Origin: a virus
Lineage: Duplodnaviria; Heunggongvirae; Uroviricota; Caudoviricetes
Virus record (IMG/VR): IMGVR_UViG_648028025_000004
Reading direction: 5' to 3' (one strand)
DNA length: 53,480 bases
Each line of letters begins with the position of its first letter. The first letter of the stretch is position 1. Made by a program: the position numbers. Shown in pieces: positions 18,001 through 21,000 of this stretch.

Positions 18001-21000
18001 TCTGACCGCCTGCGTCGGGGCCAACAACACCTATGTCAGTACCTAATCGATAGCGAATCCAGTCATTCGCAAGGGAGTTCCATTCAATACCAGTGTGAGT
18101 GTATGCACTAAAAGCTCTGTCTCCAGTTACAGCTGTGTTGTGTCTTTTATTACTGCCTGATGGAGAGTAAATATCTTGCGCAATATGGAGAGATAATTGG
18201 CTCGAGTCTGAGATATCGTGGCTATATCCCAGAAATAAGCCTTGTGAGTAATCATCTCTGTTTTCATGTTTATTGCCATAAATATCATTAAGTATTGGTT
18301 GAAACTTCCCTGCATCATCATTTGCTAATGATAATGCAAGGCTGTTCGCGATAGCTGAACACGTGGTAAATGACAGAGCAATAAAGACGCCAGCGATGAC
18401 ACTTTTTTTCATATGTTATTGTCTTCCTTTTTTTTGAATGGTGCGCGTATTTTACATACATGAGTTTGTAATACAAGGTGCGTAATCAATATGATGTTTT
18501 ATAATTGCGTGAGACAATTGATTTATTCGTTTTTTATTGCGGTTTTTATTATCTTTTAATGTAACGGTGTTTTTATTAAGTGTGTTTGCGTGGTGTTTTA
18601 TGTTTTTTATAATTTTTATTTTATTAAATTTAAAAGCATTAGTAATGGCTATTCTATATAGCAATATAAGAACTGTTACAAAAAAAGGGGGGGCAATTAC
18701 AGGTAGTTATGGATGATGAGTGAAACAGATATTGGAGAACCGGGGAATGAATGATGTCTGAGTCTTATATATCAGAACTCCTTCGCTGTCGCTGGGGGCT
18801 CCTGTGCTTATGTCGTTTCCCCGATTCGGTTTTGAACGATTACCGAATGTTGAAGAATTATGCCAAAATATAGAAAGGATTTACTGCATGAATACCCAAT
18901 ATTTACAGTATGTTCGTGAGCAACTTATGGCAGCTACTGCTGACTTGAACGGAGCAACGAAAGGCCAGCTCGAAGCCTGGCAGGAGCATGCACAATTTGA
19001 TACTGGTACATACAAACGAAAGAAGCCGCGCATTCTGGATGTGGTAACTGGCAAGATGATTACGCTGGATAATACGCCGACTTCCGGTAAGCAGTCGTAC
19101 GCAAAAGGTTCATCCATTGCTTTGGTCAGCCCGGTTGAATTCTCAACCTCTTCATGGCGCCGCGCGGTTTTGTCTCTCGATGAACATCAGAAAGCATGGT
19201 TGCTTTGGTGTTACAGCGAAAGCGTTCGATGGGGGCATCAGGTCACCATAACGCAATGGGCATGGAGCGAGTTTAAAGATTTGTTAAGTAACAGAAAAAT
19301 TGCAGGTAAGACACTGGATCGCCTGAAGACGTTAATCTGGCTGGCTGCACAGGATGTGAAGAGCGAACTTGCAGGGCGTGAGGCCTATGAATACCAGACA
19401 CTGGCATCATTGGTGGGAGTGACAACAAAAAACTGGTCCGAGACATTTACTGAACGCTGGGTTGCAATGAAGCACATTTTTCTACAGCTTGATAGTGATG
19501 CTTTATTGCTTGTGACGAGAACACGTTCAAAACAAAAGGCAGCATTTTTACAGCAAAATATTGCAAAACTGGATTAAAAGCCATATACTTCATGCAAATT
19601 TGGTATGTTGTAAAAAATGTATAAACCCGCTGCCGAGTGGGTTTTTTTTATGCCCTGAGTTGTACTTGTACGGTAAACATGCTGGCTGCTATGTAATAGA
19701 GTTTTTTTAGCCTGTAACCTCTTGACGGCATTGAATTGCTTTTGTTATGAGTTGTAAGCCAATGTTATCATCTTGTATTGGGGTGGTTATGAAGGATGGT
19801 GCGCTGCTCAGGAGTTCTTCACTTTTTATTGCCTACATGGGATGCCTTGGATGGGGGAGTGCTTATTTCTATGGATGGGGTACTTCTTTTTACTACGGCT
19901 TCCCATGGTGGATTGTAGGTGCAGGTGTTGATGATGTTGCCAGAAGTTTATTTTTTGCAGTTATCGTCATTGCTATATTTCTTATCGGTTGGGGTATTGG
20001 TGTTGTATTCTTTTTCGCAGTGAAAAGAAAACATTCTATGCAAGAGCTAAATGTATTTCGCCTTTATTTTGCTGTGGAATTATTGTTTGTGCCGGCAATT
20101 ATTGAGTTTTCTATATTGAGACAGAAGATTCAGGTACCTCTTTTGCTACTGTCAGCAGCGATTGCGCTGGCGGTTACAATTTCGATAAGATCTTATGGGC
20201 GATTTTTATCGGTATCATGCTTCTATGATAAGCCATTTATAAAAAAACATTTTTTTGAGATTGTGATGATTGCTTTTGTGGCATATTTTTGGCTTTTTTC
20301 ATTTCTGACAGGATATTACAAACCACAGTTTAAGAAAGAATATGAAATGATTAATTATAATGATGGTTGGTATTATGTTCTTGCTCGTTATGATAATTGT
20401 CTGGTTTTGTCTACTTCTTTCAATGCAGGTAGTAAAAGGTTTGTCATTTATCAATCAGCACAAGATAAGAATCTTCAGGTTGATATTGTAAGGACCAGAA
20501 TTTAATTGGCTGCATAAATAATATTTTAAGTTGCAAGTTGGCTATTCGTAGGAATAGAACCTTAGGCATGCTGAATGCGTTTTCTGAACATTGTTTTATA
20601 AACTGTGTCTGCTTGCTGTTGTGATCCTGCTTTTAGTGATGGTGATGATGGATTTCACCAGCAGGATAATGTTGGTACTGACTGATGGCGCTCTGGTCTG
20701 CGGCATTGTGGTATTGCTGTGGCCGATGATGAAAGAACAGAATGAATAATTCTTGACTTTTTTGTTTACTGTTTATTAAAAAATCAACCGCATGGTGAAT
20801 CCTCCTTGGAGGGGCTAAATGATCGAGTTTTAAGGGCACGTAGCGAGTTCTGTTTGATCATTGCAGAACTTAGCGGGAGGCGCCATGCGTACATCACTAG
20901 TGTTATTCCTTTTATCATTTTCCTTGTGAGTTCTGGCTGCGCATTGCGCAGCCTTTTTTTTATGACCTGCCACTGGCAGATGGTCATCCTGTGATTTGAT

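Follow-up and report, generated by a model that had tools for sequence, protein, structure and literature searches.

A gap of 542 nt (positions 20506-21047) ahead of the esterase gene nanS-p was analyzed in a 53,480-nt stretch of tailed-phage DNA (Caudoviricetes; IMG/VR record IMGVR_UViG_648028025_000004); the whole of this stretch is called the window here. The gap belongs to the "moron" slot of a lambdoid prophage, with Q and its pR'-tR' region on one side and nanS-p and the lysis genes on the other. With a probability of about 90%, it contains two independent, previously described genes on the plus strand: tciB, coding for a small membrane protein of the DUF3927 family, and pasD2, specifying a small RNA (sRNA). 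A preliminary description of this DNA had drawn attention to a short hydrophobic open reading frame (ORF) and to a strong terminator. Both are real and both were already known, the ORF as part of an annotated DUF3927/TciB gene and the terminator as the end of the published sRNA PasD2; the ~170 nt that separate them, which had been overlooked, are the sRNA gene. The coordinates of the features are collected in Table 1.

Table 1. Features of the moron slot and its surroundings, in window coordinates.
Feature	Position	Strand	Details
Q antiterminator gene	18804-19577		Pfam Phage_antiter_Q
pR'-like promoter	19561-19589		TTGCAA-17-TATACT, directly after Q
Terminator after the pR'-like promoter	19623-19644		followed by a T run (site to 19653)
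Multi-pass membrane protein gene, 247/252 amino acids	19747-20505	+	from the ORF list; PHROG 1521 at 2e-154, function unknown
tciB-like gene, 52-amino-acid DUF3927 small membrane protein	20591-20749	+	TTG start, TAA stop; the ORF of the preliminary description is its 3' part (20639-20749)
Putative sigma-70 pasD2 promoter	20753-20782	+	-35 TTGACT (20753-20758); -10 TAAAAA (20777-20782); 18-nt spacer
pasD2 sRNA gene, 172 nt	20790-20961	+	STnc100-related, Hfq-dependent trans-acting; by identity to E2348/69
62-codon ORF	20806-20994	+	"putative membrane protein" of the phage 434 record (OL657226, CPT_434_70); overlies pasD2 and its terminator
PasD seed UGUGAG	20925-20930	+	complement of CUCACA, a motif enriched among the RIL-seq targets (PMC8550237, Fig. 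S5 and Table S7)
pasD2 Rho-independent terminator	20935-20961	+	GGCUGCGC-AUU-GCGCAGCC, then U8
nanS-p (DUF1737/SASA esterase)	from 21048		frameshifted
Class II holin gene	23360		

The gap is 100% identical to phage 434 and to many chromosomes of enteropathogenic and enterohemorrhagic Escherichia coli (EPEC and EHEC, respectively). In particular, window positions 20580-21060 are 100% identical to NC_011601 positions 740947-741427, in prophage PP2 of EPEC strain E2348/69, and the identity is 99.67% over a 7-kb stretch. The PasD2 RNA of that strain (NC_011601 741157-741328, plus strand; 172 nt; listed in Table S6) was verified by northern blotting, depends on Hfq, which stabilizes it, and has many partners in RIL-seq (sequencing of RNA interactions captured by ligation); its targets are CUCACA-containing mRNAs of both the core genome and virulence loci, and its read counts in the lysogen are very high (baseMean ~11,000) (Pearl Mizrahi et al. 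2021, PMC8550237). Because the identity is complete, PasD2 can be transferred directly onto the window, where its 3' end falls exactly at the terminator of the preliminary description. The RNA of the window thus corresponds to the PasD2 variant over the whole 172 nt and its flanks and, by its identity with the E2348/69 RNA, would be a ~172-nt Hfq-dependent, target-pairing RNA in the host of this prophage as well. The gene order is also that of E2348/69, namely LpxR, YlcG, Q, membrane protein, DUF3927, PasD2, SASA esterase, PasA, and holin; although the RNA is unchanged, the prophage differs by a 14-bp duplication in nanS-p and a few single-nucleotide polymorphisms only. The same EPEC strain has a second form of the RNA, PasD1, and the EHEC homologue is EcOnc13 (Pearl Mizrahi et al. 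2021, PMC8550237; Zhu, Shabalina & Storz 2026 preprint). The most frequent sequence among the 85 loci collected is of the PasD1 type, with 41 loci; 29 have exactly the PasD2 of the window, and the rest are minor variants.

PasD2 folds with a z-score of -3.07, and its likely architecture begins with a structured, STnc100-homologous 5' domain, continues with a single-stranded U-rich stretch that would hold the seed, and closes with a terminator hairpin and its U8 tail. Most of the seed-bearing stretch, which separates the 5' domain from the terminator, stays unpaired in the centroid fold, although in the minimum free energy fold its UGUG is paired in a weak stem. That the terminator is a strong one, as the preliminary description had it, is borne out by the stem, the U run, and a shuffle test: the hairpin (20935-20953) has a stem of eight pairs, seven of them G-C, and a three-base loop, and is followed by eight T residues up to 20961; its folding energy is -15.9 kcal/mol (z = -4.5), and 0 of 200 shuffled sequences folded as well. 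The 3' end of the terminator coincides exactly with the mapped 3' end of PasD2, and both the AUU loop and the U-rich tract of PasD2-type terminators are present in the window. Such a hairpin with its U8 tail is the module to which Hfq usually binds.

When the whole window was scanned against Rfam at the gathering thresholds, only an ALIL element was returned, and an E-value threshold was needed for the match of PasD2 to STnc100. The STnc100 model (RF02076) then aligned over its full length (positions 1-206) to 20760-20964 on the plus strand at 41.4 bits (E 3.6e-7), i.e., below its gathering score of 47, and by the Rfam cut-off the RNA is a relative of STnc100 and not a member of that family. 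Copies with an alternative central region (loci L084, L086, and L092) score 96-101 bits, whereas copies of the PasD type score 37-41 bits. With the STnc100 of Salmonella and Shiga toxin (Stx) phages, the window RNA shares the slot between a moron coding sequence and nanS-p, the 5' end GCAUGGUGAAUCC, the closing helix, the internal hairpin, and the GGGAGGC box; the 5' end and the box are common to all copies. It differs in that its central part is shorter and diverged, and in its seed region and terminator, canonical STnc100 ending with CCCCUCUCCGGAGGGG-U5. The terminator is common to all complete prophage copies but not to the STnc100 copies of Stx phages. Three pairs have changes on both sides, two of them compensatory changes in the GUUCUG/CAGAAC hairpin, among seven sequences that are of low diversity and in which the 3' strand of the closing helix is misaligned for the window.

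Directly after the tciB stop codon lies a putative promoter for pasD2, whose -10 element is 7 nt upstream of the reported 5' end of the RNA; it is predicted from sequence and is not a mapped start. The elements TTGnCT and (TG)T-TAAAAA are kept, at equal spacing, behind stx1B, behind stx2B, behind a different tciB 3' end, and in a metagenomic relative, whereas the spacer and upstream sequences of these loci are unrelated. Because the promoter elements are conserved behind unrelated genes, pasD2 is argued to be an autonomous transcription unit.

The other gene of the gap, tciB, was recognized from its product. The 52-residue protein matches Pfam DUF3927 (PF13064) at 53 bits (cut-off 25), with residues 7-50 on profile positions 7-49 of 53, and PHROG 1470 ("TciB-like") at 2.5e-17. 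It is 42% identical to TciB of phage P1 over all 52 residues; P1 TciB itself, which is in the same length class and likewise has the DFTS motif and two hydrophobic segments, scores 106 bits against the DUF3927 model. RefSeq WP_000499454.1 is exactly this coding sequence, and the phage 434 record names the coding sequence at the same position TciB. When 1.84 billion representative proteins were searched with a DUF3927 profile, 73 clusters came up, almost all of them 45-65 residues long, and the alignment has a basic residue near the N-terminus, a hydrophobic segment, D-F-T-S, a second hydrophobic segment with a central D-G, W-P, and a basic tail. The window protein conforms to the family in its length, its two segments, and its D-F-T-S and W-P motifs; its segments span about residues 5-20 and 27-45, on either side of the conserved DFTSR motif, with hydropathy peaks at residues 5-19 and 28-43, and the N-terminal segment is conserved in distant relatives. 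TciB is most likely inserted in the inner membrane. The suggestion that the ORF encodes a small membrane peptide was therefore sound in substance, because it belongs to a conserved family of ~50-60-residue proteins with two hydrophobic segments. A literature search for TciB and DUF3927 found no experiment on TciB, and the "tellurite/colicin/cell-division" label is borrowed, by homology or association only, from the TerB homology of tciA. The top match of the representative search, P0075, is a predicted protein of 2,177 residues with 22 separate DUF3927 profile matches, which may be a repeat or an assembly artefact.

The preliminary description had given the ORF 36 codons, at 20637-20747. The peptide, MVMMDFTSRIMLVLTDGALVCGIVVLLWPMMKEQNE, is real and hydrophobic, but these positions miss its frame by two bases, and their translation runs into stop codons; it is encoded at 20639-20746, with its stop codon at 20747-20749. 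Nor is it a complete gene: the frame is open for 52 codons from the TTG at 20591, so that the last 36 had been described and 16 upstream codons missed, and the Pfam alignment covers ten residues (7-16) upstream of the supposed start codon. A 36-codon ATG ORF is in any case uninformative alone, because a six-frame count gives 279 of that size in the window. The accompanying warning that the local GTGATG repeats create artefactual ORFs was justified, as (GTGATG)x2 occupies 20636-20647 and a minus-strand ORF (20633-20839) ends in HHHHH.

Unlike that of P1 and most other phages, tciB of the window is accompanied by neither tciA nor tciC, and it starts with TTG. In P1 and most phages, tciB overlaps the tciA stop codon and is followed by tciC, and in most phages its translation is coupled to that of a TerB-like tciA; its start codon overlaps the stop codon of a TerB-like tciA also in vB_SalP_TR2 (an N4-like Salmonella phage), in CharmingMan, and in loci L084, L086, and L089. 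Here, the position that the TerB-like tciA holds in other phages is occupied by the membrane protein gene at 19747-20505, which carries a hypothetical-protein label in existing annotations; tciA has been replaced by this unrelated gene. The overlap of tciA and tciB in L084, L086, and L089 (about 2416-2504) has the form GTGA, and three tRNA genes follow Q in these loci; in L089 (2043-2504), tciA is broken into two ORFs. In Escherichia albertii, the DUF3927 genes (L085; P0030, P0048, P0066, and P0071) contain a variable number of copies of an in-frame 21-nt tandem repeat (seven residues, LEAGGWR), which lie in the loop and the second hydrophobic segment; the repeat truncates the copy in L085.

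The preliminary description proposed that a small membrane gene would be discredited by loss of its reading frame in homologous prophages. The frame is in fact kept in diverged DNA copies (74-92% identical), in which the indels are in frame (9 nt in L086; the 21-nt repeat units in E. albertii), and three of the four changes in codons 1-20 between the window and an E. albertii copy are synonymous.

Several observations weigh against the identification of two working genes. On the RNA side, these include the STnc100 score noted above, the weakness of the -10 element (TAAAAA) and the failure of a consensus promoter scanner to call the pasD2 promoter, and the fact that the 5' end of PasD2 rests on RNA-seq coverage rather than 5' end mapping; in addition, the expression data are from E2348/69 and not from the window's own host strain. 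On the protein side, tciB has no recognizable ribosome-binding site (Shine-Dalgarno sequence) ahead of its TTG and no tciA partner, the gene upstream being unrelated and 85 nt away. Pairwise ratios of nonsynonymous to synonymous substitution (dN/dS) are 0.45-0.85, and >1 for some close, mosaic pairs, ratios that are weakened by the gene being short and mosaic; because they are only moderately below 1, selective constraint on tciB is weak. Taken with the start codon, the missing ribosome-binding site, and the absence of tciA, this leaves expression and function of tciB in this prophage unproven. Finally, the AlphaFold model of the product is all-helical (predicted local distance difference test score of 93.7), and it is one long continuous helix rather than a hairpin, which does not settle whether the topology is a hairpin or a single span.

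Alternative accounts of the RNA have to be considered in this light. PasD2 might have no promoter of its own and be cut from the 3' untranslated region (UTR) of the moron mRNA, the terminator being primarily that of the operon. The bracketing of PasD2 with its upstream gene, "(> >) >", in Table S6 of PMC8550237 would fit such an origin, as would the weak -10 and the silence of the scanner. However, the -35 and -10 elements form one conserved block with the first ~30 bases of the transcript, a block that follows such unrelated sequences as stx1B, stx2B, and varied tciB 3' ends; conservation starts exactly at the reported 5' end, and the very high read counts in the lysogen also argue against processing; we regard a 3'-UTR origin as quite improbable. 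Far less credence still, indeed hardly any, is due to the idea that the DNA under pasD2 encodes the 62-residue membrane protein of the phage 434 annotation instead of an RNA. The frame is indeed open and the C-terminal half of its product hydrophobic, but the product matches no family in Pfam, NCBIfam, or PHROGs, the ORF runs through the intrinsic terminator, and the RNA is experimentally documented (PMC8550237). Moreover, a 1-nt indel shifts the frame in the PasD1-type variant (giving 53 residues and a different C-terminus), and larger indels break it in the STnc100-type variants. The absence of frame conservation effectively refutes the protein, and the 62-codon ORF is probably a misannotation. 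RefSeq, for its part, records a minus-strand pseudogene ("frameshifted, internal stop") over pasD2, at about 20829-21070, which looks like an annotation artefact.

For the hydrophobic protein, the preliminary description had raised a type I toxin held in check by an antisense RNA, a part that could be played by PasD2 or by an unseen RNA. TciB does resemble Hok, Ldr, TisB, and ZorO in being a small, very hydrophobic, prophage-encoded protein, and an abundant sRNA gene begins 40 nt downstream, but PasD2 is encoded on the strand of the ORF without overlapping it, and no CTCACA seed-target motif occurs on the plus strand between 19500 and 23500. Neither an antisense antitoxin RNA nor a regulatory leader was found: both strands of 19500-21100 were free of matches at E<=10 to Rfam families of toxin-antitoxin RNAs (Sok, Rdl, Sib, OhsC, IstR, and OrzO types among them), in a search that does not strictly cover an unannotated antisense RNA, and there is no promoter or terminator on the minus strand over the ORF. 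In P1, N4-like phages, and other relatives, the homologues belong to a tciA-tciB(-tciC) operon in which stop and start codons overlap, unlike type I toxin-antitoxin loci, and there are PasD and STnc100 copies with no tciB beside them, such as those behind stx genes. The toxin proposal is thus unsupported, and we consider it very improbable indeed. A relic is less easily dismissed, though still unlikely: tciB, cut off from coupling to tciA, would no longer be expressed and would persist because the DNA is young and spread by recombination. Its TTG start without a Shine-Dalgarno sequence, the absence of tciA here and its decay in L089, the weak purifying selection, the truncation of one E. albertii copy by repeat expansion, and the reading of some variants through the stop codon into the sRNA are all as would be expected of a relic. 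They have to be set against a frame that hardly any of the hundreds of copies represented has lost, an N-terminal module that has diverged and yet stays hydrophobic, the synonymous changes in codons 1-20, and indels that are multiples of three.

A further role for the terminator was considered and rejected, as was a further RNA. A Q-specific tR' or qut function of the pasD2 terminator was discarded since pR' and tR' lie at 19561-19644, directly after Q, and since the tciB-PasD block travels with the unrelated Q families PF06323 and PF03589. The further RNA was suggested by the anti-sRNAs AgvB and AsxR, for which a "convergent sRNA" arrangement at the pR' moron site has been described (Tree et al. 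2014, PMC4104026); their genomic slot, from the moron coding sequence to a conserved downstream ORF, is the one considered here. A convergent RNA of this type was rejected, since neither AgvB (RF02702) nor AsxR (RF02703) matched at E<=10 on either strand of 19500-21100, and the 86 nt from the terminator to nanS-p contain no above-chance structure.

With tciB and pasD2 as separate genes, the locus might operate as follows. PasD2 would be transcribed from its own sigma-70 promoter and end at the strong intrinsic terminator, which, by analogy with lambda and the Stx phages, would also keep transcription in the lysogen from running on into nanS-p and the lysis genes. Polymerase modified by Q at pR' would presumably override this terminator.

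Copies of the gap are common: of 5,426 complete E. coli genomes, 695 carry it, at 3,721 places in all and with a median of six copies each. Phage 2B8 has 98.2% identity to this region, and the slot between Q and the nanS-p and lysis genes is conserved whatever the type of Q. Searching viral contigs for related loci gave 80 near-identical copies of little diversity, and searching genome contigs gave three loci; diverged copies of the locus were obtained through individual protein variants. One copy (L083; JAIITD010000172.1), on a 3-kb contig binned as a Veillonella sp. metagenome-assembled genome, is 99.8% identical to this E. coli prophage region, and its assignment to Veillonella is probably binning contamination.

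Upstream of the gap, the promoter and terminator between 19561 and 19653 are expected to yield the short pR'/tR' leader transcript. The leader has a weak Rfam match to the Salmonella sRNA STnc240 (28.2 bits against a gathering score of 55; E 0.12), which hints that STnc240 may be a pR' leader RNA of such a type. A tRNA scan of the window found none, so that it lacks the cluster of tRNA genes that follows Q in Stx phages and in L084, L089, and L092. Just 5' of the 247/252-residue membrane protein gene is a candidate extended -10 promoter (19722-19751; TTGACG, an 18-nt spacer ending in TGt, and TATGAG), and this could drive the moron, i.e., the membrane protein gene and tciB, in the lysogen; the two genes are probably co-transcribed. 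The true start of the membrane protein may be Met15 or Met31 of the longest ORF, according to the PHROG alignments. Farther upstream, on the minus strand at 14865-14981, the ALIL pseudoknot is present in full length (RF01497, 121.5 bits); because ALIL is the programmed-frameshift signal of IS3-family transposases, this indicates an insertion sequence inside the prophage.

Downstream, the nanS-p duplication that distinguishes the window from E2348/69 is a tandem one (GCTTACGGTGAAGG x2, at 21276-21303) and the sole gap in the 7-kb alignment. It splits the SASA esterase gene into ORFs 21048-21374 and 21371-22912; nanS-p of strain E2865 is likewise marked as frameshifted by RefSeq. The 85-nt major form of PasA, an sRNA of EPEC E2348/69 (NC_011601 743499-743415), recurs without any change on the minus strand at 23062-23146, between nanS-p and the holin gene, and the window thus has PasD2 and PasA on either side of the esterase gene, as described for PP2 of E2348/69.

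The remaining biological question is what TciB and the other DUF3927 proteins do, and whether the orphan copy is made. A far-reaching answer would be that TciB, lacking a TerB-like partner, acts alone as a membrane-active factor of lysogenic conversion or exclusion (e.g., against colicins or superinfecting phage), and that the fixed adjacency of tciB to pasD or STnc100 reflects a functional link, for example with PasD arising from two sources, its own promoter and the tciB 3' UTR, and thereby coupling moron transcription to sRNA dosage; this is speculative and, in our estimation, a long shot. The value of the present analysis is mainly annotation hygiene. Public records mislabel the sRNA, the phage 434 record as a 62-residue "membrane protein" and RefSeq as a pseudogene on the minus strand, and the "gap" before nanS-p in widespread EPEC and EHEC prophages and in phage 434 is not empty: the slot is occupied by a conserved gene for a small protein and by that of an abundant, Hfq-dependent sRNA whose pairing partners are mRNAs of the core genome and of virulence genes.

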